DNA of 52,042 nucleotides, the filler included, from Bipalium vagum (Eukaryota): the NCBI GenBank assembly GCA_037834085.1. It is 3 parts of 3 records of this genome, joined end to end, with 100 filler letters (N's around TTAATTAATTAA, not from the genome) between each part and the next. Parts side by side here need not be neighbours in the genome. Positions count along the whole stretch, not along the records: positions 17,389 to 33,859 come from JBBMKC010109723.1; 2 more parts are not named here. One strand, written 5' to 3'. Under the pieces are notes generated by a model. That model saw only the letters and a program-made list of their open reading frames with translations. It was not told the DNA's origin and did not search any database. A program made the translations under genes and the position numbers. Every line of letters begins with the position of its first letter. The stretch's first letter is position 1. This document shows positions 2,290 through 32,700 of this stretch, in pieces.

Positions 2290-2640
2290 AAAGATTATCA
2301 TTTCTTACTCATATTTCTTGAAATATATATTACCAATAATCTACTTTATCACTTTTTGATAAATTATTTGGACCAGTTTAAGGTCTTAAATTGCTCCAAT
2401 TATAACAACATTTTAAAAGAATTTTACTATCTAAATTAAATTTTGAAATTATTAAAACATGATCCATATGCCAGTATTTTCTTTGATTTTTCCAAGTTAT
2501 TTCATCATAAAATTGAAATTGAAAACAATTAATTAGAAAATCAAAACTATATCCAAATAATTCTTAAATTTTTATCTTCTCTTTGTTCCCTTATAGCTCC
2601 ATTTAAGGTATTATATAAATGTTGCTTACATTTTAACATT
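2290..2640 (-). pseudogene. HNH endonuclease of giant-virus/prasinovirus type, pseudogenised
   Basis: Minus strand: LFGYSFDFLINCFQFQFYDEITWKNQRKYWHMDHVLIISKFNLDSKILLKCCYNWSNLRP*TGPNNLSKSDK, matching the family pattern LGC..QF...MTWDNYG.WHIDH..P...F.L....CF.WTNLQPL...N.SK. Confidence 0.8.
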
Positions 2641-2669
2641 AGATTTTCTTGTTTTCTATTTCTATGAAA

Positions 2670-3460
2670 ATCATTTTATTTTATTTTCTGGAATATTTCT
2701 ATGATTTTTAATATGGATTAAATGATAACTTTTATAATTATTCATTTTAGAATAAAAATCTGTTATTTGTTTTATTTGAAAACATTTATGACATTCTTTT
2801 GTTTATATTTAAAAAATAGATTTATTATTTAAAGCTTTCTCTTCATAAATATCAAAGTTTTCATTCTCTATTTTTTAAATTAAAAAAAATAATTTGTCTT
2901 TTTGTAATTCACTCCGTTCAATTATATTCAATGTATGATTAACAAAGATGACTTTGATTAATTTTATTTAATTTTTAAATATAATACTGGTGTAAGACTG
3001 TTATAAGATAAAAATAAAAAAAATTAAATTTCTAATCTTTCCAGGGGAGAAAATTTTCAGTTTCTATATAATCATAAATATCTTGTAAGGGATTTATTGT
3101 TATATTTTCTAATTCAAGATATAAATTTTTAAAATACAAGATTTTGCTTAACTCAAAATATTTTTTTTATTTATTCCAATGATTTTTATAAATTATATTT
3201 ATTTTATATAAATTTATTTTCAGGAATATTTCTATGATTTTTAAAATGGGTTAGGTGATAAGATTTACAATTATTTATTTCTTCAATAAAAATCTGTAAT
3301 TAGTTTTAGTTCTTTAGTTTTGCCTAATATCGATATTGTATAGTTATTATATTTTCATTTTATAAATATTTAATTTATCTTTATACTTAACGTATGTTTA
3401 ACAAAGTATATTTTTATTAATTTCATCTAATTTATAAATATAATAATTGCGTGTTATGTA
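2670..3460 (-). repeat. Diverged tandem duplication (about 0.5 kb period) upstream of the HNH gene
   Basis: ggaatatttctatgattttta...aataaaaatctgt near 2690-2763 and again near 3223-3297; gtatg.ttaacaaag...aaatataata near 2933-2986 and 3392-3445. Confidence 0.75.
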
Positions 3461-4244: not shown

Positions 4245-6182
4245 TTTTTTTATACACCTTAGCCAGTTTACACGCCGGTGGTGGCCTAGACCCCACATAC
4301 CCCGTATGAGCAGAACATACAACAAATAGTACACCAACACAACCCCACCCATCACCAAACATCAAACAATCAATCATACAATCAATAAATCCAACAGACA
4401 TTCCTAACAGAACAGGAAACGGAAGAAATAAAAGAAAATAACATAAAACTTACCTAACTTACCTGCCTCAGGGGTATACATTTTGACCAGGTCCCCTTTC
4501 CCTGGTCTTAAATGACCTCAGGTTCCTCCCTAGCCCAATCGCCGGACACCCGTACACTTTTCCCTCCCTGCTCGACAGAGATCCAACACCACTCGCCGAA
4601 CAGAGAATCGAGCCCTAAGGATGGCTGTTTCTTAGGGCGTCCGTACGGCCACACATTCAGTTCAATGTACGTCGACCAGATCCAGATACGGCATGCCTGA
4701 ATCGAATCATCGCAGCAGAGCCCTCCAAAGACCTCACAGTCATTACCTTCAGGTCCCCGAGCGTGAACCCGAGTTCCTTGAGTAATAACCATGTGCTATA
4801 ACACCAAGCTCCTCTCCAATTGAGTTTTATACCTGCTAAAAAGGGTACACTCGTCCCGCTGGGGTCTACATACCGATGTACCGCGCTTATATCATATTTA
4901 CGGACCTTGATCTTATTATCTTCCTCCAAGTTTACCAAACTTGAGTCGCTGACAATCTGGGCATCTAAAACGAGAGGAGGAACACCGTCCTTAAAGGCTA
5001 CGATATCAGGCTTTAGAAAACTGCTGTTATAGGGGATTTTCGGTTCGACCTCGACCCGATAGCCTAAGGCTTTAAGCTGAGCCACCACATAATCGACTAC
5101 ACGATTGCGCTTCCAGAGACGCAGGCCTTTTGCAGCACCACATTCCTGGAGTATATGGTTGAGGCTCTCGAGCTTGTCACCACAGCCTTTATCACAGAAT
5201 GGGCTCCCAGAGCCAGCTCTACCACTTAATGCTCTTGTCGCAGTATGAATCAGGTTACTCCGAATCCTGATCACGTAAATATAATCTTTCCCGCTCATAA
5301 GTTTGGTACCATTGCTGACCCTCGAATGCACCCCTGGGACTCGATCCATCTCCGCCAATCCTTTTCCGTCCAACAACATACACGCAGAAACGCGACAGTA
5401 GTCGTTCATCGATCCCGCTTCGTCAGAGCCCACCACCAACGGTTCGTTCCACAATGCGACCTCCTTACCAAACTTCAGACACTCACCTGCCGCACACACA
5501 GCCGGGTCAGTGCTCTCAGCCAACTTCGCCAGTCGCCGTGCCTTTCCGAAGTATACTGTAACCAAGAGTGACGGCAACCCAATACCACCATCCGACACTC
5601 TAGCATGGATATACGCTGATGTCGTATCACTTGGTAATTTCAGCCATTCACGAACTTTCTGCCGCATATACTTATCGAGCGTTCTCAACTCGGTTGAGGT
5701 TACCGATCCCAACACCCGAACATGTTGGACCTTAGGGATCAGGTAGTCGCGGAGGAGCCTTTGAAAGCCCACCTAAACCCCTCAAGATCAATCGACTAAA
5801 ATCCTCTTTGACTGAACCCTTCGCCGAGAATCGAATACCCAAATACTTATATTCATTGCCGGCTGAGTGACACGACCACGGGTAAGGTGGCCGCCTCACC
5901 AACAACCGGCTCGGAGTTCGGAGGATCCTAAATTCAACGGTAATTCTGAAGTTGTCTTAATCTGAATTTCTCCTCACTTTCTGTGCCATGCCATATGGAT
6001 AGCCAGACCCCCTCGGGCCTTTGCAGACATTCGGGTAGATCGTACACCGAACCTCAACTCCGTGGGACGCCTCAGACTCGTCTTCGTCTTGAACGCCCAT
6101 GAATGCAAGTGTGGAGACTACGACCAAAGCCACCAAAGCCATCTGTTACAATTCAAACAAACTCAATCCTTCCAATCAACCC
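4245..6182 (-). mobile_element. R2-clade non-LTR retrotransposon, internally deleted
   Basis: GC-rich island. N-terminal C2H2 finger (CTIYPNVCKGPRG/LAIHMAWH across a frameshift, about 5980-6050), RT motif 7 YKYLGIRF (about 5830-5855), thumb LRDYLIPK, CCHC knuckle CDKGC..ESLNHILQEC, REL nuclease EPKI..KPDIV..LDAQIV..KVRKY and LNWRGAW; 3' UTR ends in a short A run near 4245-4251. Confidence 0.9.
4657..5772 (-). CDS. C-terminal part of R2-like ORF (thumb, zinc knuckle, restriction-like endonuclease)
   Basis: 371-aa ORF in the track with CCHC and PD..D..K motifs; RT core absent, so probably non-functional. Confidence 0.85.
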   Translation of the reverse strand: MGFQRLLRDYLIPKVQHVRVLGSVTSTELRTLDKYMRQKVREWLKLPSDTTSAYIHARVSDGGIGLPSLLVTVYFGKARRLAKLAESTDPAVCAAGECLKFGKEVALWNEPLVVGSDEAGSMNDYCRVSACMLLDGKGLAEMDRVPGVHSRVSNGTKLMSGKDYIYVIRIRSNLIHTATRALSGRAGSGSPFCDKGCGDKLESLNHILQECGAAKGLRLWKRNRVVDYVVAQLKALGYRVEVEPKIPYNSSFLKPDIVAFKDGVPPLVLDAQIVSDSSLVNLEEDNKIKVRKYDISAVHRYVDPSGTSVPFLAGIKLNWRGAWCYSTWLLLKELGFTLGDLKVMTVRSLEGSAAMIRFRHAVSGSGRRTLN

Positions 6183-7179
6183 GGAGTAATGACATTATGC
6201 TGATAATTGTGATTCTTATGATATTTGACAATTATGTACTGATCTTTAATTGTGTAATATTCTCTGTAGCAGTGTTTAACATTATTTATGGCAGTGTATT
6301 GGCCTTTTATTGCTTATAATTTCAAAATATATGTATTGTAAAAATCGATTTTGACAGATTTATATAAAATAATAAATAATAAAACGATAATTAAATAATA
6401 AACAAAAGGAAGTAAAATATCATAATAAATAAGATAAGGTATAATAATAACATGTATAAATTATTATTAACATTAATATTAGTTGTGATTATATTTTTTA
6501 AAAGAAAATTTATAATAACGTAACATCAAGTTACCATTAATAGAAAACAGATCAGAAATTTTATATTAAAAAATGAAAAAATGGTAAAAATGGAAAAAAG
6601 AAGGATAACAGAATTATATTAAGAAAGAGAAAGTTACTAATTATGGAAGAGAAGGAAAAAAGAAGTGTATAAAAGCAAACAGAAATTATAAGAAGGGCAG
6701 AAAAAAAAATAATGACAGTTTATAAGAATCCAAAGCAGACGAATTCAAACGAAGTAGAACAGACCAAAAACTACAGAATACAACTATTCAATAATCTAAT
6801 CACAAACCCACAGATTGAACTCAGTCAGCTGTATAAACCTACAAACCAAACTCAGCCTAAAAGTGACTACCACTTATGACTCTAATACATTCCATTGTTA
6901 CGAAGGACTTGTAAACGCCAATTCGCCTACGGATATTGACTATTTAAAGGGTCGACAACAATCAAAAAATAGAAATAATAAAGAAAAAGTAAGAGCATAA
7001 AAATAGAGAAAAGAAAACCTCAAAGATCTTCAATCAGCGCTAAAGACAGGACGAATACGAAAACCCGACTAAACTAAAGGCAAGCAGAACATTGAATCAC
7101 TGAAGAGAAAAGGAACTTACGACGATCAAGTGGACCAATATATGACAATTGTTTTGTTGATAAAGTAAATTTCATAATT

Positions 7180-7426
7180 GATAACTTGTTACATCATTGT
7201 AACAAAGTTTTAGTATTCAATAAATTTTAACTAACGTTTTATATTATTACTATCTTAATTTTAAATTTTGTCGTCAATTTTAAGTATTTCAAACATTGAT
7301 TTTGGTCGTAACGATTAGAAAAGTTTTAGTGAAAAGAAATTGATTTAGTAATCTATTATTCGATTAAGTTATCCTTTATTGATACTTGTTACATTCTTGT
7401 AACAAAGTTTTATTATTATTAAATTT
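7180..7426. repeat. Pair of about 45-bp direct repeats 200 bp apart, each with a palindromic core
   Basis: acttgttacatcattgtaacaaagtttta at about 7184 and acttgttacattcttgtaacaaagtttta at about 7384; core ttgttaca-N4-tgtaacaa. Confidence 0.8.
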
Positions 7427-8134
7427 ACACCTATATCAATAATATAATATAAAACTAGCTCGGAACCCAAGGTTCACAAGACTAGTCTCAATTTTCAATA
7501 AATAATTATATTTCGTTCCTTTATTAAGCAAGCGTGTCTTGTTAGGCAAGACAAAGTTTGTCCTAACTAAGTAAATACTCAGGCCAGGACCTGAGGATTA
7601 TATAACTTTTTAAGTTCCCATTTCTTATTACTTTATTCTTTTTTCTTGTTTTTACTTCATACACTAAGTATGGTGGTGAAGTATATTTTTTCTTCATATA
7701 TTGATGACCTCTGATCCTAAGAGCGAGGAGATTTTTCTAAATAATAATTATAATTAATAAAATCATTTTAAACTCTTTAAATCAATCAGAACAGATATCA
7801 CGCAGTTTTAACTTTATTTTGAATAAAATAAAAGTATTAAAAAGTCAAGCGTTTTCTTAGTTATTTCAACCGAACACATAATAAGCAACCTTCACTCGTT
7901 AAGGCCTAAGCATCATAGTAAGCTCCACTTGTAACATCAATTTAACCCATCTTAGGATCTTAACACAAGCTAAATTAATAGTAGTGAACTTTTCATGAAT
8001 TGCACGAAGATGTGTACCCAGCCGAAACCGAGTATGTGTTTCAGGTGATTACAGGGTCGATGCCATCCCTGTAACCACCCTAGCCCTGGATCGGCTTTTA
8101 CGCGGCTATCAACCATCGTATCCTCCAACCCTAA

Positions 8135-8613: not shown

Positions 8614-11600
8614 ATGACTAATACGACTAACCTTTCTCGAGTTCCTTCTCGTAGATTGTCGTAATAAATGATTGTTCTATATTCGCATAAATTAGTTTTT
8701 TTTAATTTTCAGAACTAGTGGTATTAGTCTGTATGAAATTTTAGAAATAAACAAAACTGCAACAGAATCAGATATTAAAAAATCATACAGAAAAGTGATT
8801 GATAAATATTTATCTATCTTGAACCATAATATTTTCCAAAATTCTAGCTTGCTTTAAAATATCATCCTGATAAAAATGCCAATGAACCTGCGGCTACTGA
8901 AATGGTATTGTTTAATGTTTATATTACAACCACTTATTTTAGTGTTTAGTTCAGAAATATTAACAGAGCTTACTCAGTTTTGATCGATTCAAGAAAAAGA
9001 AATTTTTATGATAAATATGGATCACTGGGATTACAGTTTTTAAATCAAATGGGCGAAGATAATGCACAGTTCGTATTAAAATCCGCACATCCTTGTTTTA
9101 AGGTATTTATTGATTTTTTTATTGAAATACATCTGAAATCTTAAATTAGTAAAGGTATTTAACCGTCAGAAATAAAATTTTAATTTATTTTTAAGATTAT
9201 TATTCATTTATGTTTTGCTTATTCGTAAAAGTATATATCAGTCGTGTCCAGTTTACATTTATTGGTCGAATGTGGATAAATATCATTTATTTAAGAACAA
9301 TCAGATTCACATAAATTTAAATTATATGTAAGACTAATAAAATACACTTGACAAATAGAGCAATATCAGTATAGAATCAAACCTCACAGAAAACCGAAAA
9401 AACAAATAGATGTTAGCTAAAGCGTAAATATGACATGTGACACTGATTAATGTTAAAATTAATGGTATAATTCGGTCTGGGTTACTAAGTAGACATCGAA
9501 TTATGGATTGCAGTTGCTCGTTTGTCAACATCAAGAAAAAGCTCTTTGGTAGGAGAGCTCAGAAGTTTTTAAAATATTTCTGGAAAGTGAAATCTTCCTG
9601 CAGATCCATTAGGTCAAGCTGCACATCTTATTGGTACATCTTTATGTGAACTACAAAAGGATAAGTAAACCAATTAAGCTTTCTTTAGAAAACTCTGAAA
9701 ATTTTGTTTTTTTTTGAAATTTTTTTTTGAAAAAACGTATCTTTTTGGTGCCTGTTATGAAAGTCTATCAAATAGTTCTTGAGATACAAAAAACCAGGTT
9801 GTGTGAATATTTCTTTTTTAGGCCCAGTGAGCACCTAAAAATTAGTACTATATATTTTTGCCCGTTTACCGTACACTCTGGACATTTATAATTAGTCAAA
9901 ATTCAACACCTTTTTTCGGCTTTTCAAATTTGGTTTATGTTAAAAATAAAGTCTGAAATTCCATAAAAATTGATTTTCAGTTACTGAAATAATTTTTCAA
10001 GCAGGATTGTTCTTAATCAATTAATATCATAAATACATCCGTTGTCAATTTCTTTTTCTCAAATATTTTATTTTTCAATGACAACTGTTTAGTTTGTTTT
10101 GATAACAATTTTAATTTTCTCTATTTCGAATGAAATTTATTGTCTTTTTCAAATTTAAAGTTTTCTGTTATAAAGATAAAACTTTTGATAAACAGTCAGA
10201 AATATTCATAAAATAATTTATTTTGTTCTCTGCTTTATTTAATACGAATATCAGACATTTGAATATTATATTTTACCGATAATGTTGCGAAATAATAACT
10301 GGATCTTTTGTTTGAACACTTAAACCTATTCCACAACACGGTCATCACATTCGATTTTATTTAGAAAAATAATAATTATTGTTAGTATTTCGACTTTAAT
10401 TATTAAAATCATATGAAAGAATGACATGATAATTATTTCATGTGAACAGTGTTGAATTTCAGAATAATTATTATTAATTCTCTCAAAGTCTGATATTTGA
10501 AATTCTGGGTGTATTTCAAATAAAGAGAGAAGGTTCTAATTGAAATTTCCAAAAATACGAAGTTGAGAGTTTGTGAAATATTTAACTTTTTGTGAGATCA
10601 AAATAAAAATTCATTAAATTTCTTAACGCTGCGCAGTCTGGCATATTTAGATTTAATGAAATTTTGGTTTTTGAATTACCCAAAAATTATGTATAGAATA
10701 TTTCTCTTAGAAAATGAAAACCCATATTTTGAAGTCATAATTCAGTTCTAATACCATTGACTGAAATGATGTTATTTTGCATCAGTGCTATAAATTTCAT
10801 TGCTAAATTCGAAGTTTCACACGCTAAAACAATATTTTCATTTCATTTAGACAAGACAATTATTAATCTTGTTTAACAAGATTTATATTTATTATATTTT
10901 TAAATAAAAAAAACAGTTAAAAATTATCTAAGTATATATGTAATGCAATTTCCTAATACAAATTTAGCGTAAAAAGGCTAAAAGAATTAATGCAAAAAGT
11001 TTTGAAGATTTACGATCCAGAATTATTATGAATTCTACTAAAAATTCCGCGAATATTGCAAAGATTTTAGGTTTGAAATGAACAACGGTGTATTCAATTA
11101 TTAAGAAAAATCAGATCACTGATAGTAGTAAGTTAGAAACAAAAGGTTCTCATCGTCCAAAAGTTACAAGTGTGGAAGGGGAGGGGAGGTACAAATTCGA
11201 GAATAGGTTGTTGTCAATTGTGCTTTAACATTGGCAAAAATATCCAGAATGTATGAAAAAAAGGAGTTAAAATATCACCAACAACTGTGTATAGAAGATT
11301 AAAATGGTTTCATTATACCCTTAAAAGAATACACAGCATGCCTGAACTCCGAAATTTCCTCGTCACCATTGAAAAAAGAGTATTTTATTCAGCCTCATTT
11401 TTGGATGACTGTTTTTGCAAAGGATAAGATAATAGATGTTTCGATATGCTCAAGAGAGAGATGATCTTTGAAGGGTTCTCCGGCAGCATTAAATGTCCCA
11501 GGATTAAGATCAAGAAACATCTCTTGCGGAGCTATGAATGTGATGGACTATTATACTTTGGAAATAGAATCAAAGCCTATAATACAGAAAGTTATATTTC

Positions 11601-14600
11601 TTTTCTTGATAACCTCCATGTGAAGCTACAAATGTGTGGTGTTGTTAAGGGAGCTTTTGTCATGCATAATGTTCCATGACAATGTACTTCACTTGTTGAC
11701 GAAAAATACCAGAACTTGTGTATCGATGTGTCTATCTACCACCTTATTCTTCATTTTTAAACCAGATTAAGATGTGGAAAGGATTGGTTCAAAGATCAGC
11801 TCCTACAAATGAATCTGATTTAATAGAACTGGTTGAAGACATATCTCTTCTTATTACAAGCAGTTATTAGTTATGATTTTATAAACATGATAAAATATCT
11901 GTCAAGATGAGCAAGAAAAGAAGTGATCATGGACTAAAAACTTTTCGCAATAAATGTTGTTATTTGTCTAAATTAAATGATTAATTAACAAGATAATTTT
12001 ATATAATGTTATTTTTCGCTAAAACTGAAAAATTTTCTTTAAAAATAGTATATTTCATAAAAATGGGTAAAACCTCAAAAACACTAAAAAAAATTAGCTT
12101 TAATTTTAGGTTAATCAATTGAATCTTGGGACGGGTTTTATTGAAAGTGTTTTATTTCTTTTAAATCATATTATTGATAATTCTGAGTAATCTAAAAATT
12201 TCTCAAATAATTAATTGAATTAGTCAATTTATTTTAAATATTAATACAATAATAGCCTTGTTTAAATTGAAAATTGATCTTTTAGCATTAAATAATTAGA
12301 TATAATGATTGTCTAGAAACTTTTGATTGCTTTTTCATTGTTTAATAAAATTTGTTTACATTAAATTTTTTGTCTAATAAATTAGTATTGGCTCTCCAAT
12401 TTAGTTTTTAATATTTACAAGTATCGATTCAAGGAGATTTTATATATTTGAAATTGGCACGAGAAAATAACAGAGGTTCGTTGAATGTTTGACTTCTTCT
12501 CACAGTAATTGATACAATTTGAGAATAGTTGACATTTTTTATTACTGCATATAGTTTTCAATCAGTGAAATTTAATAAAATTTATTGTACCAAAAGACAT
12601 TTTATACGCGACTTGGAAATTCTTGGGTCCTTTGAATCGAATGTTTGAAAATAAGAAAAAGTTTCATTATTTACTTACCAAATTTATACTCAATTTTAAT
12701 ACATTAAAAATCGATTGATTTTTAATAAAAAATGTAAATTTAAAAAGTAAATAAAGATATCTATAGGAATTCTTCTAAAATATTCAAGGTTGACCTCGTC
12801 CAGAGGAAATAAAACAATAAAGGTTAAAATATTAGATTTCTCATAATTGATTTTTTATGGTTATTATTGATTTCATGTCTGATATTATCGATTGTATAAA
12901 AGATCTATTTTATTTCTTTAAAAATATTTTTACACTCTTCCAATCATTTGATTCCACAATAGTAATTAATTTAATTTAAACTTAGAATCATTTATTATTA
13001 GATTTTTATTATTAATTTTAAACAGGTTTTACTTATTGCAACCTGTATCCTAACTGGGTGTTGCTATTGCTGCTTTTGTTATTGTTTCTGTTGTTACAAC
13101 TTCTGTTGTGGAAAATTTGCTCCAAAAGAACAGACAGAGTTTGAAGAGCCATTAACCGAAAAAGTTGATTTTGTTAGTTTTTTATTTAAATTAATTGACC
13201 AGAAATATTTTTTGCAACCAAATAGATAAGAAAGTTTTACATTTTAAAAAAATATACGGGTATTCTGAAAGTATTTAGATATAGTAATTGATTTTTCAAT
13301 ACTTCATTAAAATAGTAAAAATATTTTATTTTTCAAAATGTATTCTTCAGAGATCAATGATCTTCTGTTATCTTTTTCCAATCTATATCACACCATCTAT
13401 GTACATAAAAAACTTGACAAGTAATTTTGAAATAGAAAGCTGTATCTTTTTAGGAAGTTGATTATATCATATGTTGATTAAAAGGAGCTAAATATAAAAT
13501 TTATGCTAGATAACAGAATAAATCTTAATGGTTTTTTTCTCTTTTGATTCTTCATTATTCTTTTGAATAAATAATGTTTTTTACGATTGATTGAGATTTG
13601 TTAAAAGTTCTCTAGGACTGAATTTGGACTGAAATCAGCATTTGTTTTTCTTTCCTTCGGAATAATAAGTAAGAAAGATTCAATTTGAAGTTGATCATTG
13701 ATCAGATAAAATATGTTACCTCTCAATTTTAAAATCAAAATCACAAAATCACTCCCATTCCTTTCGCGGATATTTCTATATTCTTTTATTTCAGTATGGC
13801 TTATTTGAAACAGTTCTTTAATTTTGATTTTATATTTGTTAAAATGATCAATAAATTCAATTTTTAAAATGTTTTTATATATATTTTTCTGAAAAAACAA
13901 TTATTTCGTGACACTACAATTACCAAGCACATTTTAATGAATTTTCGCATTTCTTAATACTTTTATAGAATTACTCACTATAATAATTTCTAACTGTATC
14001 CTAGTTGGGATACGTTACATTTTGTTGTTAATAATTTTTGGTTTTATTCATTTACATAAGATATTTAACAATGTCGAACTTCAGATTTTCAATGAATTAA
14101 CGGTTTTTTGTGAATTTTTATGAAATTATTGATTATCCAAGAAGTTTTATTCTTTAAAAAAGGGAAGTTTACAGTGACTTTTATCACTACAAATTTTTCA
14201 ATATGAATATTAAATTTCGTTAATTCAATTGATTTTTTATTTTCCAATAACAACTAATTTCAGGAAATTTTATTTTTAGAATGAGAGTGTGGAAGAGAAC
14301 CAGAAATTCAAAATTTATAAACTGTCGGTTAAATTCCAAGTTTAATCAACCATAAATCGATAATTGTTGAAATTTTAAAATACTACTTTAAAAAGTGACT
14401 TCACAATTTTTTTTGCAAAACCCCCTACCATCACCATACAATATTGTTAGATTAAATTTTCGTAGTTCTATTTCTTTAATCAATTGTTCTGTTGATCCTT
14501 GAGTACTCTGTGAGGGGCTAATGGTTGTGGGCCAAGTCTGTTTAAAATATCTTTTCAAATTGTAGCACCAATTTAGTAAAATGGTCATATTCTTAAAGTA

Positions 14601-14754
14601 TTTTTGATTTATTAAACAATTATTTTTGTTGAAAATTTTTGCGTTTCATTTTATCAAATTACTTTTCTTTTTAAAGGAAGCTCCAGAACATGTTATCGTT
14701 AACCAGCCCATTGATTCGTCTGTCAACAACCCAACTTATGGTACTGTTGAATAG
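8614..14754 (+). CDS. DNAJC5: Cysteine string protein (DnaJ subfamily C member 5), 6 exons
   Basis: Exons 8614-8660, 8713-8794, 8848-8904, 8950-9102, 13026-13163 (or 13172), 14677-14754, all GT-AG and in frame. Protein: [41 protein letters not shown]...YDKYGSLGL...LTGCCYCCFCYCFCCYNFCCGKFAPK (J domain with HPD plus cysteine string). Last exon is least certain. Confidence 0.92.
10940..11940 (+). mobile_element. Decayed IS630/Tc1-type DDE transposase in DNAJC5 intron 4
   Basis: HTH region (NIAKILGLK*TTVYSIIKK), FVMHNVP (VMDN..H) and YLPPYSSFLNQIK (LPPYSPFLNPIE). Confidence 0.8.
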
Positions 14755-16095
14755 ATTCTACCGATGCATTACCGAATTTTTTGTGATATTGATTTATTGA
14801 TTAAAAATTCTGCCTTACAGAAGAAGCGATCGACTTTAAATTATTTCAAACTTTATGCATAATGGATTTTTGACTTGTCTTCCTTTATATTTTTTTATTC
14901 AAAATTAATTGAAGTGTTTTATTGTTTCTGTCTTGTGAAATTTTTATTTAGGTTTATTTTATGATGTGCAAGGTATTAATTTATTTTATATTGTGATGGA
15001 CAACATTTTCATGCACTTTAATTGTGATAAATTTATTAAATTATAAATGGTTTAAAAAATATATATATATTGATTATTATTGAATTAACTCTATTAATAA
15101 AAATTAAAGATCTCGTCAATTTAATTCATTTATGTTGTGGAGCTTCAATTTTAATGTCATAATTTTACAGAGAATTATAATTTAAAAATTAATTATTTGT
15201 AAAATTAATTTATGAATGCTTTAAATGTGAAATTTTATTTAAAATACATAAATCTTTAAATTAGTATGACCGAAAATGTATATAATCTTCGAATAATTAA
15301 TACTTTTCATTCTATTTCTGTTTTTTCAAGCTGGATTAGATAAAAAATTTGGTTAATAGTTCTAAATATTAAGTTTTTATCAGGTCTTAGGTTTCATATT
15401 CAGTTTATTAATGATTCAAAATCTTTTTCCACAAAATTATGTGAGTTATATTAATATATAAATATTAATCCTTTCTTAAGTTAAAAATAAATTTAAGATT
15501 ACACAATTAAAACAATTAAGTAGTTCATAAAAAGACATTACTTACTGTTCTTTATTTATTCAGGTATACATTTTTAAATTTCTAAAAATAGGTGGTTGAT
15601 AATAGAATATTTCTATCCACCCTGCGTTTATGTATTCGACTGAATTAATTAGAATTTCTCATTGGATTTTATATCGGAAATTAATGTGTTTATTCCCAAA
15701 TTTCATTACAAATGATCTTAGATTATCATGGTTCTTGAATTTGCCTTACATTATCGTTTTTAAAATATTTTCTTAAGCTTTAACACAGATTTCAAATTTA
15801 TTTTTCTTTATCTGACTCTATTGTATATAACTCATAAATATGGAAACTTGACAAATAGTTTAATTTCAATTTAGTTGGATTAAATAGATTGCTTATTTCT
15901 TTAAAAATAAAACTTTAATATTTTTGAAATGAAATAATCATTATAGATATATTTTGTAAAATTCGTTTAAAATTGTAATTGTTATAATACAATAATTTAA
16001 CATAACTTTTAAATTGAATTTCTTTCTTTGAAATTTATAAAATATCTTTGAATGTTAGTTTATTTTATTTTTTTGTCAAATTGACACCTTTCAAG

Positions 16096-17288
16096 GCCAA
16101 TAGAAGAAAATATTAAAGTCTTAATACGAATAAGACCTAATAACAATATTGCTGGAAAAGATTACTTGTCAAGATATAAAGACTCGAATTCAATAATAAT
16201 TCCATCAGAGTTTGAGCCTAAAAGATTTACATTTGACAAAGTGGCAAATGAAAATACAAGCCAAGTTGAATACTTAATTATTTATGAATTCTTAATATAA
16301 TCTAGGAAGAAATATTTCAAAATTTTAGATCTCTTTTTGAATCGTTTTTTTCTGGATATAATTGTACTATATTTGCCTAGTAATTTTTAATATTTTGTTA
16401 AACTTTTATTTCTTGTTTATAGTGGTCAAACAGGTAGTGGGAAAACTTACACCATGACTGGTGATTCATGCTATAACTGTCTTGGTCAAAATCCGGGGTT
16501 GGTTCCTCAAGGGCTTGAATATATTTTTGATAAAATAAATGACCATTCAATTACGGTAATAATTTGAGTATATTAAAAGTATACTATTATTTATTATTTA
16601 ATTGAGTATGTAAGCCCAAAGCTTACCAAGTGAATTTAATAATTTACTCGTTAGTAAAGATTTATCAGTATTTTTACTAAATTTAATATTAAAAATATTT
16701 TAAAAATTAAATATATTTAATTTTTATTTGCAGGATCAAGTGGAATATTTAGTAAAATGTTCATTTGTAGAAATATATAACGAGCAGTTGTTCGATCTGC
16801 TTGATCCAAAGGGTCAAAAAGTGCAGCTAAAAGATAACTTTTTGCAGGGAGTTTATGTTGACAATTTAACGGAAAAGATTCTGAACAATACGAGTGAGGC
16901 TCTTGAGGTATATTTCTTTGTAAAGTTCTGAGTTTATATTTTTGATTAAATTTTTAGATTTTACAGAAAGGCCTAGAGAGTCGGCATGTTGGAAGTACTG
17001 CGATGAACCGTGAGAGTTCCCGAAGTCACGCAGTATTTTCCATTATTCTTGAATCCAGCGTAAAAGAAGATGGCTTAGAAAACATTCGAAAAAGTGTTCT
17101 CCATTTGGTAGATTTAGCTGGCAGCGAGAGACAGAAAGACACCAAATCGGACGGAGTTAGGCTGAAGGTCATTAAGGATAAAATCTGAAATCGTAATTAA
17201 CTTTTGCAATATTGATTATAGGAAGCCGGTTCCATTAATAAATCTCTTCACGTTCTTGGTCAAGTGATAAGTGCTCATGTGGACATTG
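16096..17288 (+). CDS. KIF15: Kinesin-12/KIF15-like motor domain, partial
   Basis: Exons 16096-16264, 16306-16379, 16423-16555, 16734-16907, 16958-17167, 17222-17288. Motifs [71 protein letters not shown]. First exon not located; truncated by the gap. Confidence 0.88.
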
Positions 17289-17388
17289 NNNNNNNNNNNN
17301 NNNNNNNNNNNNNNNNNNNNNNNNNNNNNNNNTTAATTAATTAANNNNNNNNNNNNNNNNNNNNNNNNNNNNNNNNNNNNNNNNNNNN
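17289..17388. other. Assembly spacer N44-TTAATTAATTAA-N44
   Basis: 100-bp gap containing a six-frame-stop linker. Confidence 0.95.
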
Positions 17389-17750: not shown

Positions 17751-20700
17751 GTGCACTGCATGAGAAATATGGATAGTTTCTGTCACATCTCTCAACATCT
17801 TTGTCAATTCTGTGCATGTTATCTGCCATGCTCAATAACTGATCATCCTGAAAAAAAATCCCAAAATAAATAATTTTATTTGGTTAAGTTTGGTATCCAA
17901 ACCTGGAATATCATATCTTGATTGGTCGATGATCCTGCATCTATACTATTATCAGAGGAGTAAAACCCTTTTGAAGGCCTGAGATCTGAAAGATTTGATT
18001 TATATATTTCAAAAACACAAAAATTCAGACCACAGTTTGAAACATTGATAATTTTATCTTTTTGGGGACTAGAGTTTTTGGATTTTTCATTTGATATATT
18101 ATTGAAATTGATTTCACTCTGACAATTAAACAAAGAATTTGGTTTCGCTTGTGAATTTGAAACCAGTTGTGGCTGGCATTCACTTTCTCGTTGACTAATG
18201 ATAACTTCTATTGCTTTCCACTGACTGAGGGTTTTTTCGTAATTCAATTCCGTAACCAGGTTTATCTCGGAATTATCAGTTGAACACCATTCGTAATGAC
18301 CCAGCATTCGAGGCCAAACCTAGCATTGCAACTTATACATTCATCGACGAAGACAGGTAATCAATATAAAAACCTCGTTTCTCAAAGATTCCGCACATCC
18401 TCCAAAATATATATACCTGTATAATTCAGTTTCTGATAAATCCTGATAAGAATTAAAAAATAATCAATATTTCTCAACAAAAAGAAAATTATTTCATTTG
18501 GAAAACTGAGCTATCCAGAAAAGCTTATATATTTAAGTTAAGTTATAGAACAGCTTCCGTCATTAGCTTAGGTGAAATCACATTTTTCAACGAAAATGGA
18601 GTCAAGTTCTTATGAACGATTAACATATAATGTTATATATCAATTATCATTTAACGGGAGATATATAGGAGCAGCCCATTACATTTGTAATATCAATGAT
18701 AAAAGTATTAAAAACTATCGTTACATTTTATTTTCATAATGGAAATTAATATGCTTTCCACTTATTCTTTAAAGATATTACAAAGAAATTTCCAAATGGA
18801 ATAAAAAATGTAATTACAAATATTGATGAAATATATCAGTTTTAGCTTTAAAAATATTAGAATTTTAGATTCATTAACAATGGTGGATTCTTCAATATCA
18901 ATAACTGAAACAATAAGAAAAATATTGACAGATACATCTAAACATGAAACATTTAATGAATATAATCTCATACCAAGAAAGTAGATATATTCAATGAAAA
19001 AACGTAAATGAATGAATTATTATTTTAAAAAAGATATTCCTCTGAAAATAATTTTTTATTCCGTTTTGAAAAAACCACAATTTCAGATGAAGACTAAAAA
19101 TATTTTTTAAAGATTATAAGAACTTTAAGAATCTAAAAGAATATATTACTTTACAATATACTTTACTAATACTTTACACTATTGGAATTAGATATTTTAA
19201 TTTTAGCTGATTTTATGGAAAATATAAGAAAAAAATGTTTAGAGTATGATTATGATATAGATTTGTTATCGTGCTCCAGGAATAAGTTTGAATTGTTAGT
19301 AAAGGAAAATTAAAATATTATAAAGAAAAAACATGATTATTTATTATTAATATAAACAGGAATAAGAGTAAGAATATCTAGTATTCAGAGATATAGAAAA
19401 GTAAAATTAAAACTATTATAAATAATAATAATAATTATTATTAACCCGAGAAAATGAGATCATGTTATAAATGATTTTAACAGATATCTTTAATATTATG
19501 ATGCAAATTATATTCAAGTTGCATAACAATGCATTACCAACAGGAGAAATGAAAAAAATTTAATTTATGAAAGAACATCGATATCATCATCTAATAAAGA
19601 AGGATTTATATATGTACTTGATTTAGAATATACTTTTGAATTACATGATAAAACTAAATATTTTTCATTCTATTCAGTAAAAGAGAGTATAATATTAAAT
19701 TATCAAATTATAAATAATACTTTATACATCTCAGAAAAATTAATATTAACAAGATTTGAAAAATATAATTATATAATATAAGGTTCAATGTTAGGTTGGT
19801 ATTTAGATCGGGGAATGGTAATAAAGAAGATTCACAAAAAATAGTTTTTAAAAAAAACAACTTTGGAAAAATCAAACATAGAATTTAATATAAAAAAAGA
19901 AGCTAAAAGAAATAAAGATGGATTTGGTGATTTCTTTTTACAAATTAAAAAATAATTCAATTTATGAAAAACTTTTAGAAAAAGACAAATTATAGAAATA
20001 GTTAAATTGAATATTTATAAAAAGAAAATATAATAACTATCATATAGATATTAATTTTTTAATTTAAAACTGGTGAATGAAATCTTCAATATTTATAAAC
20101 CGGAAGCCATAAATAATAAGTTTACTTTTCAAATAAGAACATAAGATAGTCATAAATGTTTTCAAATAAAATCAATTTCAGATTTTTATTCAAAAATAAA
20201 TAATGGTGAATCTTATCACTTAACCTGTATTAAAAATCATAGAAATATTTTTGAAAATAACTTTATAAATAATCATGATAATTGTTAAAAATGAGTGAAA
20301 TAGGTAAAAAAATATGTTGAGTAAAACAAAATTTTTTTAAAAAAATATTTATATCCGGAATCAGAAATGTAAATTTTTAATTCGCATTAATTAACATATA
20401 TGATTGAAATTAAAAAACTTCCATATAAAAATAAAAATTATTATCACTCTCATATTACGACAAAAAAATAAGTAGCTAACCTTGTTATTTTTATATCTAT
20501 TCCAAATTTCGACAGTCAATCCTTCGCTGGCATCACAAGGAACATCACATTGTACTGATCCAGGGAGAACAAGGGAGATACATTTCGTTCTGACAGTTTT
20601 TAAATTTCGATAATAATGATACCCTATTAGAAACAAGTGATTTCATTAAAAAAATTGATTTTAAGTCACTTACATCCATAAAAGGCCCTTGACAAAATCT

Positions 20701-23700
20701 GACGTCTCATTACTGTACAAAGACTGGTGAGGGAATCGTTTAACTGGTCAAGCTTAGAATGGTCAACAAATTCATTATCCAAAGTAAAAACAGAACTGCT
20801 TTTATCGTCTTTACAAGAATCTGTACTTGGACTGTTGAAGTAGTCTGACGTCGTCTCGGTTCCTGGATCCTGGTTCAAAATTAAGGAGAAAAGAAATTTT
20901 AAAAAATTACTGTCGATACTGATGTGCTTTCGTACACAATCCGAAAAACAAAGTCAGACAGACATGAATTGCATTCATCGTCATCTAAAACGGTACTTTC
21001 AACCAATTTATCCACAGATGAATTCGAACGCATTTTCAAAGTCCTGAAACTATCGAATAAACTAAACCCTTTCGACCGAATGCTTTTATAAATATTTCTG
21101 TCGTCATCCGATGTCAAGCTGCAATTACTACGTCTTCTGACCATCTTAGGAAAAGCCTTTTCTCCTAAAATGAAAATTATTTTTACATAAATGTTATTAA
21201 GTTTATTAAAGTTCGTCCACTACTAGTGAAATGTTTACCAGATAAATGACAATAAAACCTTAACGAGGAAAACGATTATGACCGAATAATATTCAAGCTA
21301 TATGTATTAGGTTGTCGAAAAAGTTCTGCAACAACTAAATAAAACTGTTTTCTTTGTGAAATTAGATTATAACAAATCTTAAGATTAATTCTCCAATTGA
21401 TTATCAATAAATCGATAAAAATTTATATTTTTGTTATACATTATACCTCAAACGGCTCTCATTAAATTTGAACTTCGGGTTTTAATCGGTCATTGTTGAA
21501 ATCAAGAACAATCCATAAGAGATGCGCTGCAAAGGAAATGTGTGTTGAAGAAAGAGAAGAAATTGTAAGTTACAGTACCGTTTCAAGGTGATGCAATCAA
21601 TTTGATTTCGGTGACTTGAGTCTTTAAGATCAGCCTCGCTCTGGTAAACTTTCAGATTTAGGCGGCAAAGGCTCTCCAAGCTTTATTGGAATTTGAATCA
21701 TTAACAAGCACTTGTGATTTGGAACTTGAAATTGGAATAAACAAATCAACGATTCATCGTCATCTGCAATAACTTGATTTTATCCACAAGAAACTGCTTT
21801 AAGATCAACATGGTCTCACCGAAGTACAAAGTGGTAGATAATGATGGATTGTATTTTAAATTTAAACAATGTTGTCTGTTTTAAAAACTTTAAATAAAGT
21901 TGTATATCTTTCGTCGTAAAATGACAAACTATTCTTAGCATTAGTGACTTCTAAAACCAAATATAACATGCCAATCATCAAACGATTCATTGATTAACAA
22001 TCCTGTTACCCATATTGATTTTCTCTATAAATATAATTTAAAAAACAACAGTTTAAGATAATCAAAATAATATAAATATATAAAAGTATAATACAACCTA
22101 TGTCCCAAAAAATGATTTGTTGATTTTAATATTAATTTTGTTTTACTGAGCTACTTTGTATATTTTTAGGATACATTTTCAATTTTTAATAAATATTCTT
22201 TTAGAAGAACAGGAAATATTATTTTTATTATATTACGAGAGAGTACTACTCAAAATGGGAAAATTCGAACTAAATTAAGAGTCAATACTTAATTATGGAA
22301 TGGCATATCGATCACTGTGTATAATAAAAGAACGTTGAATTATGATAAAATAGTTCTGTTCACTTTGTATAAGTCTATACTAATCCAAATCCGTAATTTA
22401 TAACAGTCCGCTTCATTTATCGGTACGAAAAAGATTTAAAATCCGTAAATTATCTAGAATGATTACCGTCATTGACTTGAAGTAGGGGCGGCTCCAGCCT
22501 GCCAGTTGGCATTAAACCGTTTTCCAGACACGTTAAAAATTGCAATAAATGACAGCCCGAAGGAAAATATAACGGCGGGTGTTGAACACCATCTTGACAA
22601 ACAAGAGTCACCTTTCCACTTTTGTCGTCTGGAAAATATCAAAAAGCGATCAGATATCAGATAGTCTTGATCAAAAAGTACCGTTTTGATGAACATGGAG
22701 GTACACAATATTTTCTAACTTAATCAACAGAGCACTGTCCCATTGAAGCCTGGACATAAAAATGGCCATTAAATCAAACAAAATATATTCAATTTTAATA
22801 AAGACCAAGTTTAACAAACTTTGGACGGTTAAAATATTGATTTAATTAAATTAAAACTAAGGTCTCTTTCCAAAAGAAAAGCGGTATCAATTTTTTACTG
22901 AATAATGACAATAAATGATTTTTTTCGATTTATTTTTAAAATAATAATAATAATATTAATATTAATATTAATATTAAAAATAATAACAATGATTAATAAG
23001 TAGTCTATCAAAATCATCATTTCCGAAAAGGTTGATTCTTAAATTGATTAGTGATTTATTTTACGAAATCTTGTAAAGATAGAGAAATAAAGACATGAAA
23101 ATCAATAGAATAATCGTTGAGAACAGCAGATTAAATGGAAGGTTAATGAATAACGTACGCTTTTGAAGATCCTGGAGAGATACAATTATAGGAATCTTTA
23201 TCACTAGGCATAAACAAATCAGCTTCATTCATGGTTTCCATATCATGATGGGTTTGACAGTTCATCAATTGATTGGGCGTCCATTTGAGTCTTAGTTTAT
23301 CTCCAAAGGTTTGGTGCAACGATAGATACCCTTGCATTTCATTCAGATCGTCTTTCTGTAACAAAAAGGCAGAGGAAAGAGGTAATTAAATTAAAAAAAT
23401 ATTAATGACTGATACATATTCCATTTTTATCAAAAATTTTTCTAACTAACTGAAAAATGCTCTTGTTTCATTGGATTCACAGGTGCAAATTAAGAAGGTC
23501 TTGTAAGCAGAGAATCGATTGAATATTTTGAAGATAAAAGAAAATGTTGAGGCATTTCAATTCAAAATAGCTTGAAATCATTAAGACACGATTGCAAACA
23601 CGAGTGGTCATTCATGTTTGGTCTCCATGTGAACATCTTCTCAGCCAAAATTTTATAATTAAAATAACACAGGTAAGCTTCTATTATATTAGAACTTTAT

Positions 23701-26700
23701 GTTATTATTTTAGGTTTGTTTTAATAACATAAAACGTTTTTTAACAGACAATGACAACGGCGCAAATTAGAACTTGCTTACTTTATGAATATATGTTAAA
23801 GAAAAATGCACCACATGCTGTGCGAAATATTTGCCAAGCGTGTGGTAAGGATTCAGTTACTAAACGAGATGCTCATCGTTGTTTCAAACGATTCCGTTCT
23901 GGGGACACATCGATTAAAGCTCAGGTCGACCATCAGCGATTTATAATAGCTCTTTAAAACCCAAGATCGAGCCCAACCCTCAACAATAAACTCCTGCACT
24001 TGTAGATATATTTAAAGTAGGCAACCAAACAGTTGGCGATCATCTTAAACCAATTGGAAAAGTAAAAAAACTACAAAAATAGATCCCACATCAATTAAGA
24101 GAAAATTGCAAAAATCAGCGATTATCCATTGGCTCTTCTTTGTTGATAAAAAACAAAAATGAAGCTATCCTTAAAAGAATTATTACCTGTGACGAGAAAT
24201 GGATATTCTTTGACAGGACATGACGTTCCGGTTGCAAACACGGTTGCAAAACAAGGAAATAATCCAAAGAAAAGAAGAATAACCGTTTGGTGGTCTATGA
24301 TCGGTATTATTCATTATGATTTCTTGAATTTTAGGGAAACTGTCACAGCATAATCATATTATCGTGAACTCGATGATTGTTATGAAAAACTGAAATAAAA
24401 CCACCCTGTCTTGGATAATCAAAAATCCATTACTTTTGCACGATAATGCTCTACAAAAATTGCAGGAACTGAATTACGAAACTTTACCTCACCAACCTCA
24501 TTCCCCAGATATATCTCCCACGGATTATCATCTATTCCAATCACTTGACAATTTCCTATCAAAATAAGCAGTTCAAAAATCAGGATGATGTTCAAAATAC
24601 CTTCGCTTCTTTCATTGAATCCCGTGACCTGGACTTTTTCAGAAACTGTAAAAAGAAACTCGTACAACATTGGCGACGTATCGTAGATGTCAATGATGCA
24701 CATTGTGATTAATAAAAATTTTTATAGTGACTTATCGACTTTTGATTTGTGAGATGAAAAAGCGACAATACTTTTCCTTCAATCTAATATTAAAATTTCC
24801 AAATTTAATTTTCATTTGTTTAAATGCATTAATTTAATAAAATGTTCACCTCAACCAGATAACACTTTAAACTGTTCAGTGCAGAAATCATAACATATTT
24901 CCGCCAGATTCAATTTTATGAATTGAGATTTGACTAAATCGGTGTGCAGCAGGATGAGATAATAATTTTGTATGGGACGCATAAAGCCTAAACAAACAAA
25001 GTTCTAACATTCATTTATGTAAGAAGAACGACCCCTTTCTCTATCAGAAAATGATTAGACAAATATAAAAACTTTGGGAAAAACATGTAACCCTTCACTC
25101 TATGACTAGACCACAGTTAACTGAAATCATGAAAAGTTTTCTGTGAGGAGTATATGATCTAATTCATCAAGGATTTTGAAAGCTGATGAGACAACAACTC
25201 CAACTTCGTTCACTGAATGATAAAATGACCAGAGATGTCAAAATAAAAGTACTGGCTTAGTACACTCAAAAGTACTAATTACTCTCGACGACAATGTTTA
25301 TTTGGAGACCACAAATTTAACACTACATGAGTTGAACGACCTAGACTAGAAAACCCATAATTTAGCCTTTTCCCTGGTACCTTAAACAGCAGAATTTAAT
25401 CTTTTCAGGTATTTGAAAAACTTCTGTTCAGAAAGAAGGCGATGACAATCTTCAAATCTACATGAATTCCTAAGCTGTGAAAAACCAAAGTTCCTTTGCA
25501 GTGGAATCAAATGAATAACTTTGATTAGTAAAAGTTTTTGCTTAAAAGCGTGCTCAAATGTGCTAAAGTTCACCGTGAAATGTTCCATGAATGTTGAATT
25601 AACTTAATAACATGGGGTTCAGAAATGAAGAATAGAAACCAGAGATAGATTTGAAAGAATCGTTTGAAATTTCAAAAGGTTAATGTAGTGAATGGTTTCT
25701 TTCGATTTGGAGACCTTTAAGAATTAATTTGTCTTATTTTTACTTGAAAAATAACGAGGAAATTAAAAATGCCTCATTTAGGCTGAGGAAGAGAGCATCA
25801 AGAAAATATGCCTTCCTGCCAGATTAAAAAAGAACACAAAAGTCAAAATATTACCCCTCGAGAACGATAACTTAGGACCATCAAGTCCGACAATGACATA
25901 CCAGACATAAAATTCAGCTTAAAAAGAATAATAATAATAATAAAATGAAACATTTTTTTTCTCTAAAGTTTCATTGGTGGATTTGTATAAATAAACAAAT
26001 CTCGATTCCAAAAAGAACTTTAAAATATTTAATGTTGGTGGTCACAGTCTTGAATAAGTAATGGATCTTGAAATAAGACAACAAAAACACAAGAGTGTAA
26101 ATACAATTTAATCTCTTTAGAGATCCCTAGACGAGAAAAGTACGGGTGACGAATGTAAATAATGAAACAGTCCTCTTTTTGTTTCAGTCCAATGTCTGCA
26201 GAGAAACAGAAAACCAGCTGATCATTTTCTTCGAGACAGTTTTCAATAAAGAAAAACCTGTGCTCGTCAACTATGACAGCACAACCTTTACTTGAAATCA
26301 GTTCCGAACTCAAGTCCCGCATTTATTAAGGAATTATAATATTTCTACGTGATATTTTTACGGTGCTCAGTGTGCGAGGTCAAGAAGAATAATAATGAAC
26401 ACAATTTGCACTTTATAAAACGAAAATTTGAAATATATTTTCTTATTTAATATTTCAAGCACGACTTTAACGCTATCAATGCCGAGAACAAACGCTAGCT
26501 TAATAGAAAATCAATTGATTGTTCTCTAATATGAGCACTAAATATTATTATAATAATAGATCAGCATTAAATCAAGCTACAGACAAAAAGGACGATGTTT
26601 TGTCATTTTTAAACGGCCTAAATCAGCACAAGTCATTTATTACAGTTCAAAACGACATGCCAACCATTTGAACCAAGAAGAGTGCACTGGAGTGCAGTAA

Positions 26701-29700: not shown

Positions 29701-32700
29701 AATCTGTGAACTTTTTTGATTTATTCGAATTCAGATTTTATTAAATTATTGGATGATCATTAAACGACCTCAGGTTTCGATTGAGATTCAATTGAAATGG
29801 GATGAAGATTTTAAGATGGCGGAAAAAATTGGAAATATTCGGTTTATTCAAAAGATTTATGTGAACAATAATCCACGTAATGTAAAACAATCAAAATTGT
29901 CTAAATCCTAATGGATCGTATGGTTTCAGATCTAGGGCGAAGCTTGTTTCTCATAGATTGCTTCTCTGAGATTGACGTTTTGCAAACCAGTAATAAATTA
30001 TCCGTTCGTTACCTTGGATGGTCCCAGTTGCATTTGATCCCAGTTATGATAATCTCTTCAATATTCATATTGACTAAATTTTTCAACAAGAAAGGCGAAT
30101 TTAAAAATTGATATTTTCACATCACGGATAAAAACTGCAGAATGATTGGATCAATATTTTGATAAGAAGTCCCTTTTTTGTTTTAATCATAAAACTCATT
30201 TATAAACCAGAATTTTTTTTATTTTAAAACGGCAAAAAATAGTGGGTTCGGCAATCAATAAAGATATATAAATAATTTGTTTAACTCGAAGAAATGATTT
30301 ATTTCATTGAAGAACAGTCCAACAACACTTCATTTAGTGACATGGAATTAAAATTGTTCGAAAAAAAACAAAAATTACCTAGAAGATCAATAAACAATGT
30401 CCCACTGAGAGATCCGGACATTATGGACGTTTCATTATAAAATGATCTGAGGGTTACATATAAAAATTCAATATGTTAAATTTTTACAGAAAAATTACAT
30501 ACGAATGATGTTTCATAAGATGATCGATAATAAGCACCAGTTTCTTTTCCACGAGAGATAATTTGATCCACAAATATTTCATCAGAAAAGGTTTGGGCCT
30601 GATAAAATTGAAAATTTTACAGATTTCTTCTTTATCAATAATTATTAGAACCAGACAAAGGAAAATGCATGTCATATTTCATAATAAACCAAAACAAATT
30701 TCGGAGATTTTATAAATAAATGAACAGGGTGTCCCAAGATTCACGCAAGAATAATTCTGGCACAAAGCACGTGTAATTTATCAAGAATAGTACATTTTAT
30801 TGATTATTAATACAGTATAGGGTTGGTTATGAAATAACATATTGGATATATGACTTCCACAACTATATCCACTTTTTGTCGAATTTCTCAGAGATTAAGA
30901 AAATATAAAGTAAGACGAATTGCTTTTCCTTGGCATAAAAAGGAACCATTTCTTGAAACTGGAAATTAAAAAGAGTAATGGATTCGTAGATGATTTTAAT
31001 CATTCAGCAAAACCGATTGAGGATCACATTTTTTTCTAAAAGAACCCAGTCCGACGTTGGTATTAGTTTGTTCAAGTAGTAATGTTACTTTTAAATTGAA
31101 AAGTTAAATCTACACAAATGTCGATTGAAATGTGCACGCATTCCAGCTGCTCATAAAAAAATCGGAATTGATAGCCCAGCAGTCCTTAACCAATTCAAAG
31201 TGTAGAATCCTCTCAAAGTTCCACCAAACACAAAGCATGAATTTTCTGCCTAACCGATTTTTCTTTGGAATTGAAGGCGTTACTTGTCTCTTCTCCACAC
31301 ATCACTTGTCTCGATTATGTTTGAATAAATACACCCATTTCTCGTTTGACGTCAAACTTCATTCCAGAATCGATCATCCAATGGAAAGTTGAGTAATTTA
31401 GAGAAAAACTCGACCTGCCTGCTGGCTTGTGCTTCGGTGAGTTCGTTCGGATCTTGATGCGCATTCTCGTGAACAGAATCAAGTTTTTGCAATTTATTCC
31501 ATACTGTCAAGTGAGAAACTCCAAGTACAGTCTCTAAATCTCGAGTGCTCACTGATGGTTCTATAACCAAAGCAGCTTGCAAGTCACTTTTGTCTAAAAC
31601 AGTAGGTCGTCCAGAACCACGACTGTCTTCCAAATCAAAGTTTCCTTCGTGGAAGCGATTAAAGCATTTGCCCACAGCAGTTATGCCAATTTTCTTTTCG
31701 CCTTCAATTTTATTGATTTTTACCGTAGAATCTTTTATTGTCAATCCTTTCTTCCAGTAGTGACGTAGCAACACCTGAATCTCGAACTTTGTAATCTCGT
31801 AACCAGCATAAGACATTTCCCAACAAAAATGAATTCCAAGATCGAAATAAATTTTAAAAAACAATTTTAAGTTTGTTCACGAACTTTATGTACAACCAAT
31901 AATGCTCATCTTCACGTCCCACAAACATCATCGTTAAAAACTAGAAAAGAAAAATCCATAGAACAGACTCATGATTACACGATTAATATCAGCAATAAAA
32001 CAGTAATTATGTCAGTTCGAGTACTAATAAATGATTTATGGTTCTCAAATCAATATAATTCAATAAAATCACTGAAGTGCTGGTTAATAAAACAACCATA
32101 AATCTTAGAGGCTGTCTTGAGAACGTAAGTCAACCTAAAACACATTTCTTTCATAAGTAAAATGAAAATTCATAATGATGATATAAGATCTCAGGTCCGT
32201 TCAAACGTTAATAACAACTTAAAATCGGTGGACTATGAACCTCGTCGACTATCTACCTTACTTTTCAGACATGTATAAGGGGAACCCAAAAATAGTGCTT
32301 TTAATAATTTATTTATATTTCGTGTAAAATATTCTTTATATTATAAAACCACATTTTCATGATATCTTGTTTGAATCAACCAATTTGAGGAGCAAACATC
32401 ACCATGGAAACCTCACCATAATGCAGGACCACTCCCGCTCTCACGCAGTCAAATTTTCTAATTCCTTCTTGATGCAGATGCAATCAAGCGTACTCCACAT
32501 CCACCATACTTTGCTGTCATGGACCAGATGGATTGCCTCATATTCCGTAGTTTAGAGTCAAAGAGAAGAATGAAATCATTCAAATCCGTGCATGAAATAA
32601 AAAATTTCGTAAATAGATGAGCTGACACGTGAGTTGAGCCACTTCAGAGACGACCTGGACAATATCACTTTATGTAATGGTGAATATTGATCATAAAATG

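Follow-up and report, generated by a model that had tools for sequence, protein, structure and literature searches.

A decayed Polinton-type DNA polymerase fragment lies antisense in an SGSM intron of Bipalium vagum

What is the sequence that fills an intron of the SGSM gene of Bipalium vagum, and by what route did it arrive there? A first-pass annotation, made from the letters alone, proposed that the intron hides a fossil Polinton/adintovirus DNA polymerase. The stretch of DNA analysed here (the window) is 52,042 nucleotides long, filler included, and consists of three parts of assembly GCA_037834085.1 joined end to end.

A decayed fragment of a protein-primed DNA polymerase (pPolB), about 1.35 kb long and very AT-rich (20% GC), lies on the plus strand at 18650-20003 and fills most of one SGSM intron. 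When frame 3 of 18642-20027 (with X for stops) was compared with 1.84 billion proteins by HMMER, 121 relatives were obtained at E≤1e-3, 12 of them at E≤1e-10; the top match had an E value of 2.3e-39 and 43% identity. Sixteen of these relatives were scanned against Pfam: DNA_pol_B_2 (PF03175) was found in eight, Endonuclease_7 (EndoVII; PF02945) in seven, and neither in two. Matches obtained by tblastn with 125 relatives were all confined to 18.6-20.0 kb of the plus strand. Frameshift-aware local alignment placed residues 35-535 of one relative, P0122, on 18650-19989 at 44% identity; scores against the fossil were 429 (for the polymerase of locus L001) and 329, compared to 42±4 for shuffled sequences (20 Markov shuffles each). 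A profile built from 10 intact natural relatives gave 140 bits on the fossil, while the maximum among ten shuffled windows was 5.7. Searches of single frames were silent: Pfam returned no family on the three X-read frames of 18400-20300 (neither EndoVII nor DNA_pol_B_2), PHROGs gave no match to frame 3, and none of 1125 candidates from a word-indexed protein search with frame 3 passed. Fossils of this kind are overlooked by ORF- and Pfam-based scans and recovered by direct protein search. At 49257-49481 a further signal resembling polymerase (score 60) has none of the key residues and was rejected.

The fossil begins in the last part of the EndoVII insert and runs slightly past polymerase motif B, which corresponds to 39-46% of the length of three full-length relatives. 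Degenerate motifs were recognized at nine of ten positions checked (EndoVII end, ExoII, LDS, KxxY, ExoIII, GIR, Pol A, YxxDLEY and Pol B); motif C was not found in the fossil, and both motif C and the N-terminal half of the enzyme are absent from the entire window. With P0122 as guide the reading frame is broken by 10 stops and 8 frame changes (8-13 of each with other guides), and the longest run without a stop is 84 codons. The largest insert on the DNA side of the alignment amounts to eight codons, and the net change has been by deletion. The first-pass annotation had described about nine collinear motifs from EndoVII to Pol B, the lack of motif C, and an ORF hidden by stops and frameshifts, and all three descriptions hold, the motifs being present far beyond chance. 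Its extent of 18640-20040 needs revision: the polymerase is there and ends at about 20003, but repeat-derived DNA continues to about 20367. Similarly, the end of EndoVII is in place before exonuclease II, but just the last 15 or so residues survive, with no direct Pfam match. The features are listed in Table 1.

Table 1. Features of the polymerase fossil, its host intron and the HNH gene copies in the window.
Feature	Position	Strand	Remarks	Basis
Polinton-type pPolB fragment, decayed	18650..20003	+	about 40% of enzyme, 10 stops, 8-12 frame changes, without N-terminal domains, without motif C	homology search, alignment, profile
EndoVII insert, C-terminal end (GAAHxxCN)	18650..18700	+	Pfam silent on fossil	intact relatives carry PF02945 here
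Exonuclease II motif, then LDS motif	18720..18880	+		tblastn, motif check
Exonuclease III motif region	19170..19211	+		8 of 11 positions match P0126
Polymerase motif A, then YxxDLEY motif	19494..19640	+		frameshift-aware alignment, motif check
Polymerase motif B and final alignable residues	19936..20003	+		tblastn, alignment, motif check
HNH/EndoVII-like nuclease gene, front part (CxxC-like region and linker)	20002..20367	+	abuts polymerase piece	
Second HNH gene remnant, with catalytic domain at 2339-2590	2339..2993	-	2552-2993 leads into HNH domain	
Third HNH copy, front part, tandem	3063..3452	-	79% identical to 2552-2993	
SGSM intron (host gene with RUN / PH_RBD / Rab-GAP TBC)	18443..20480	-	2,038 nt, GT...AG	
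SGSM exon upstream of intron	20481..20623	-		tblastn with P0272, splice sites
SGSM exon downstream of intron	18374..18442	-	23 codons, in frame with next exon at 18319	splice sites

The intronic position, also claimed at first pass, is borne out by minus-strand exons on each side, by a donor GT at 20480 and an acceptor AG ending at 18443, and by P0272 (a named TBC-domain protein), whose residues 385-431 match upstream of the intron and 432-500 downstream, that is, consecutively. The next SGSM intron measures 54 nt. The fossil, being on the plus strand, is antisense to SGSM. Elsewhere in the window, a host kinesin motor gene with short introns (16085-17290, plus strand) stands tail to tail with SGSM across the N gap at 17289-17388, which is filler between joined parts; a host DnaJ protein with a cysteine string, presumably DNAJC5-like, is encoded at 8950-14751 (plus strand).

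Why does the polymerase stop short of motif C? At about position 20002 it is joined to the front part of a different gene, encoding an HNH nuclease, and this accounts for the missing motif. The HNH gene is separate from the polymerase, broken and multi-copy: three copies of its front part occur in the window, the piece at 20002-20367 being 75-80% identical at the nucleotide level to 2552-2993 and 3063-3452 (both minus strand, in tandem). The intron copy has no catalytic half, but the catalytic domain at 2339-2590 upholds the earlier report of an HNH remnant in the window. It is matched by 37 phage records (best E 1e-7, 37-41% identity) and by phrog_1035 (endonuclease VII; E 0.001), with alignment scores of 126 and 113 (medians 36 and 33); Atlas matches for the HNH piece were all under 0.9 and give no more than a lead. 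The catalytic domain thus resembles free-standing HNH or endonuclease VII-like genes of phages, such as p100 of Rhizobium phage 16-3, but unlike these the copies in the window are broken, multiple and carried by an animal genome, the intron copy having lost its catalytic half. Alternative identities for 20003-20367 (polymerase C- or N-terminus, integrase) were rejected, nothing rising above shuffles, and the one locus returned by an IMG/VR scan for HNH was weak, out of register and likewise discarded.

It is not proven that polymerase and HNH gene were parts of one element. In L001 the polymerase is followed on the same strand by an ORF with a zinc finger, and such an arrangement fits a deletion inside one element, with the qualification that 829 of 2000 shuffles resembled this ORF as well as the fossil tail does, so that the likeness is not significant; nor does the tail significantly resemble the Rhizobium phage protein at its N-terminus. 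HNH elements are described in association with Tlr1 and PLVs (PMC5499653), and some pPolB2 carry HNH domains (PMC10748475). An account of pPolB domain layout includes polinton pPolBs with homing endonuclease inserts (PMC11161782).

Evidence on copy number comes from a DNA sequencing run, X1, that contains 95% of the sampled words; it may be the window's own source, and what it provides is therefore not independent of the window. Contigs with no differences bridge the polymerase/HNH junction, as well as the junctions between exon and fossil and between HNH piece and exon: all three are real. Over the pieces listed, X1 contigs repeat the window letter for letter. A total of 885 contigs fall on 17900-21000, of which 65 are at least 99% alike, 124 are 95-99%, 246 are 90-95% and 450 are below 90% alike. 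Summed depth, which is not equivalent to copy number, rises from 25-65 beside the exons to 270-7450 within 18628-20291; by the same measure, again not a count of copies, the HNH part reaches 19782 and the polymerase part a few hundred to 5389. The many differing contigs on the fossil point to a dispersed, diverged, high-copy family. At least three of the 10 stops stand at positions where most X1 contigs differ (among the 40 of 99 differences listed), so that those stops look private to the copy in the window. A second organism (run X2) yielded 18 weaker pieces with similarity to both the polymerase and the HNH parts. The earlier description of the element as formerly abundant is half sustained: the family is abundant, but "formerly" is not borne out since intact copies may still exist. 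Together these data show a broken, non-coding pPolB fragment, antisense in an SGSM intron, joined to an HNH piece and kin to many diverged contigs.

Polinton/Maverick elements are bounded by terminal inverted repeats and flanked by a 6-bp target duplication. Neither was found around the fragment, and neither is to be expected, because the fragment is an internal piece. For the remaining genes, eleven profiles were made from ORF clusters of L001 and 20 EndoVII-type loci of IMG/VR and run against the window and ten shuffled windows. The ORF clusters of the 20 loci include capsid (7), A32 ATPase (15), adenain-like protease (8) and PLA2 (3), cluster names resting on one or two members each, on Pfam scans of 12 sample ORFs and, for "minor capsid", on our own label; among the sample ORFs Pfam recognized double jelly-roll capsid, A32 ATPase, adenain-like protease and PLA2. 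Only the polymerase profile clearly beat the shuffled windows. Nothing clearly above shuffles was seen in the window for capsid, ATPase, protease, integrase or PLA2, although a diverged, broken capsid could escape these profiles from 21 EndoVII-type loci. The capsid-like remnants of the first-pass annotation are accordingly not supported: the best capsid score is 4.6 bits compared to 4.4 in shuffled windows, at a sensitivity to diverged, frameshifted capsid genes that is limited. Two tblastn leads, one integrase-like (48309-48530) and one minor-capsid-like (39431-39604), failed against profiles or shuffles, and no rve integrase is present in the window.

We regard it as very likely that the sequence is a Polinton/Maverick relic, element-level features beyond the polymerase not being seen on this copy. 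The history that we strongly favor begins with integrase-driven insertion: a whole element of the family would have inserted into a small intron, deletions would then have taken away the element's ends and the polymerase's front, as well as everything between motif B and a point inside the following gene, and the remaining DNA would have decayed neutrally, the remnant being spliced out normally with the intron. A remnant removed in this way makes no protein; in a living element, pPolB would copy the linear genome by protein priming. Since nothing remains here of inverted repeats, a target duplication, an integrase or a capsid gene, the insertion route is one that we infer.

The most serious competitor, though an unlikely one, is a patchwork, in which the intron received fragments of Polinton DNA, or a transcript copied back by reverse transcription, as patches, the polymerase and HNH sequences being perhaps two different repeats. 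It would explain the lack of surviving element ends and the two further HNH front parts in the window that come without polymerase sequence, and it fits both the greater summed depth of the HNH part and the presence of LINE- and LTR-type remnants nearby. However, the polymerase and HNH pieces abut directly on one strand, the X2 pieces resemble both parts, and L001 shows the same succession of polymerase and downstream ORF, even if likeness between that ORF and the tail is not significant.

The hypothesis of insertion by an integrating element receives further support from the position of the fossil among polymerases. From 235 candidate proteins, 219 with a sufficiently long match were kept, and 122 remained after redundancy filtering. 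In a FastTree phylogeny of 116 rows (rows below 330 residues dropped, short subclade members added back) the fossil falls in a clade of 16 rows with a support of 100 and a stem of 0.44, next to P0001 and P0122; IQ-TREE with a mixture model and 37 rows, including the 12 most AT-biased outside rows, recovered the same clade (SH-aLRT 100). Both trees are unrooted and made of rows other than labelled references and bidnavirus, adenovirus or plasmid polymerases. In keeping with decay, the terminal branch of the fossil (1.05-1.18) exceeds the medians (0.46-0.53). Its letter make-up raised a warning in each of the two trees; the placement is nevertheless matched by discrete signatures: a GxxLDxxLDxGM-type motif is found in 13 of the 15 other subclade members and in none of 100 other rows, while DxNLYG is found in none of the 15 and in 75 of the 100. 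PF02945 was detected in all five long subclade polymerases that span the insert (E 1e-5 to 0.03; P0122 alone above the curated cut-off). A polymerase phylogeny, proposed at first pass as a check, thus nests the fossil in a fully supported subclade of EndoVII-type Polinton polymerases.

In one member of this subclade, L001 (1-4738), the polymerase is immediately preceded by an rve integrase (E 2e-16): integrase, polymerase (here broken into three frames) and C2H2 zinc-finger ORF follow on one strand. This speaks against a polymerase derived from a non-integrating relative (a bidnavirus, adenovirus or linear plasmid) and endogenised passively, as do the hundreds of diverged contigs, which fit an integrating element, although the trees hold no bidnavirus, adenovirus or plasmid rows. 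Such a source gains something from the closeness of EndoVII-type Maverick polymerases to bidnavirus PolB (PMC5803895) and from the fact that no capsid or integrase adjoins the fossil; we nevertheless consider it very improbable. Least credible of all is a live gene whose breaks are introns or assembly errors, given that the frame is disrupted by in-frame stops and by small shifts, that no insert exceeds eight codons (far below host introns of about 54 nt, so that spliceosomal introns do not sit at the frame breaks), that X1 contigs agree to the letter over the pieces listed, and that the whole window has neither motif C nor the N-terminal half of the enzyme.

How does this relic, which we take to stem from an inserted element, compare to known ones? 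Its polymerase, present as a fragment, is of the EndoVII-bearing Polinton/adintovirus type originally proposed: one or other of the two Pfam domains occurs in 14 of the 16 relatives scanned, PF02945 in about 75 of 120 relatives of P0122 (by hand count, among matches listed), and the same pair is found in insect Mavericks, whose POLBs are annotated with both DNA polymerase B2 and endonuclease VII domains and lie close to bidnavirus PolB (PMC5803895). With Sf Maverick 1 and 2 the fossil shares the order EndoVII end, exonuclease II and III, polymerase A and B, but the window copy is a dead fragment of some 40% of the enzyme from a subclade with its own signatures. The multi-copy habit of Polinton/Maverick is equally evident (885 X1 contigs, most below 95% alike; three occurrences of the HNH part in the window). 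Adintovirus PolBs have been divided into Alpha and Beta classes by PMC8502044, whose main text makes no mention of endonuclease; the Alpha class was binned with Polinton group 2. Alpha PolBs match bidnavirus at about 1e-60 (PMC8502044), and the Sf Maverick POLBs at 6e-58 and 4e-67 (PMC5803895). The EndoVII-type loci retrieved include ORFs for PLA2, an Alpha hallmark. The fossil's class is therefore likely that of Alpha adintovirus PolB, an assignment drawn from the bidnavirus E values and PLA2 ORFs in place of labelled Alpha references. An N-terminal OTU domain characterizes Alpha PolB, and the corresponding half of the enzyme is absent from the window. Degraded adintovirus relics are known in animals: like the fossil they are pseudogenes that sit in host chromosomes and are disrupted by nonsense mutations and frameshifts, but the relic described is of Beta class and keeps several genes, whereas here only parts of the polymerase and HNH gene are left (PMC8502044).

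None of the 12 subclade proteins looked up has an informative name, and the subclade consists, besides the fossil, of 15 unnamed members. Two members were returned by a JGI scan; IMG/VR scans aimed at the subclade gave neither members nor complete elements. No paper on the subclade was found in the literature covered, a search outside of which lie Repbase, paywalled papers and parts of supplements that could well contain it. Neither the supplement of PMC8502044 (in part) nor that of PMC10748475 (tables giving coordinates) yielded its motifs, a weak negative given the nature of these sources. The subclade is real and possibly unnamed, judging from the database entries of its members. Tentatively, and with more doubt than conviction, the fossil may mark a deep branch of EndoVII-type polintoviruses that has no name yet, is absent from IMG/VR and has spread to hundreds of copies in the host; its polymerase would carry a distinctive signature and be followed by a free-standing HNH gene.

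A single copy matters little, because Polinton polymerases are widely known from animals, in hundreds of genomes (PMC10748475 counts 20,702 copies of pPolB1 across 960 genomes, with 748 in flatworms), and degraded relics have been described; Polintons are also reported as abundant in corals and planarians (PMC11131425, PMC8532177, bioRxiv 10.64898/2025.12.11.693146). Such fossils are common, and the sole twist is likely to be that this one belongs to a little-sampled branch of Polinton-type elements. Should the subclade indeed be undescribed, it would extend the diversity of Polinton polymerases by one branch and supply a host where the family has expanded: a modest addition to taxonomy, with no new mechanism.

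Other repeats and open frames are scattered over the window. Mariner transposase remnants with HTH_48 and Transposase_1 lie at 23745-24564 (plus strand, inside the SGSM gene span) and 31113-31876 (minus strand), and pieces at 11082-11867 (plus strand) resemble IS630/Tc1-type transposase by eye, the one piece scanned giving no Pfam match. An RT_RNaseH match at 43719-44084 (minus strand) marks an LTR-retrotransposon RNase H remnant. An open frame of about 280 codons at 37391-38236 (minus strand), of no Pfam family, ends at a run of Ns. Finally, a 371-codon open frame at 4660-5956 (minus strand) is GC-rich (about 50%), has no Pfam match and is far less decayed than its neighbors; we take it to resemble the C-terminal end, zinc knuckle plus nuclease, of an R2/NeSL-type retrotransposon.
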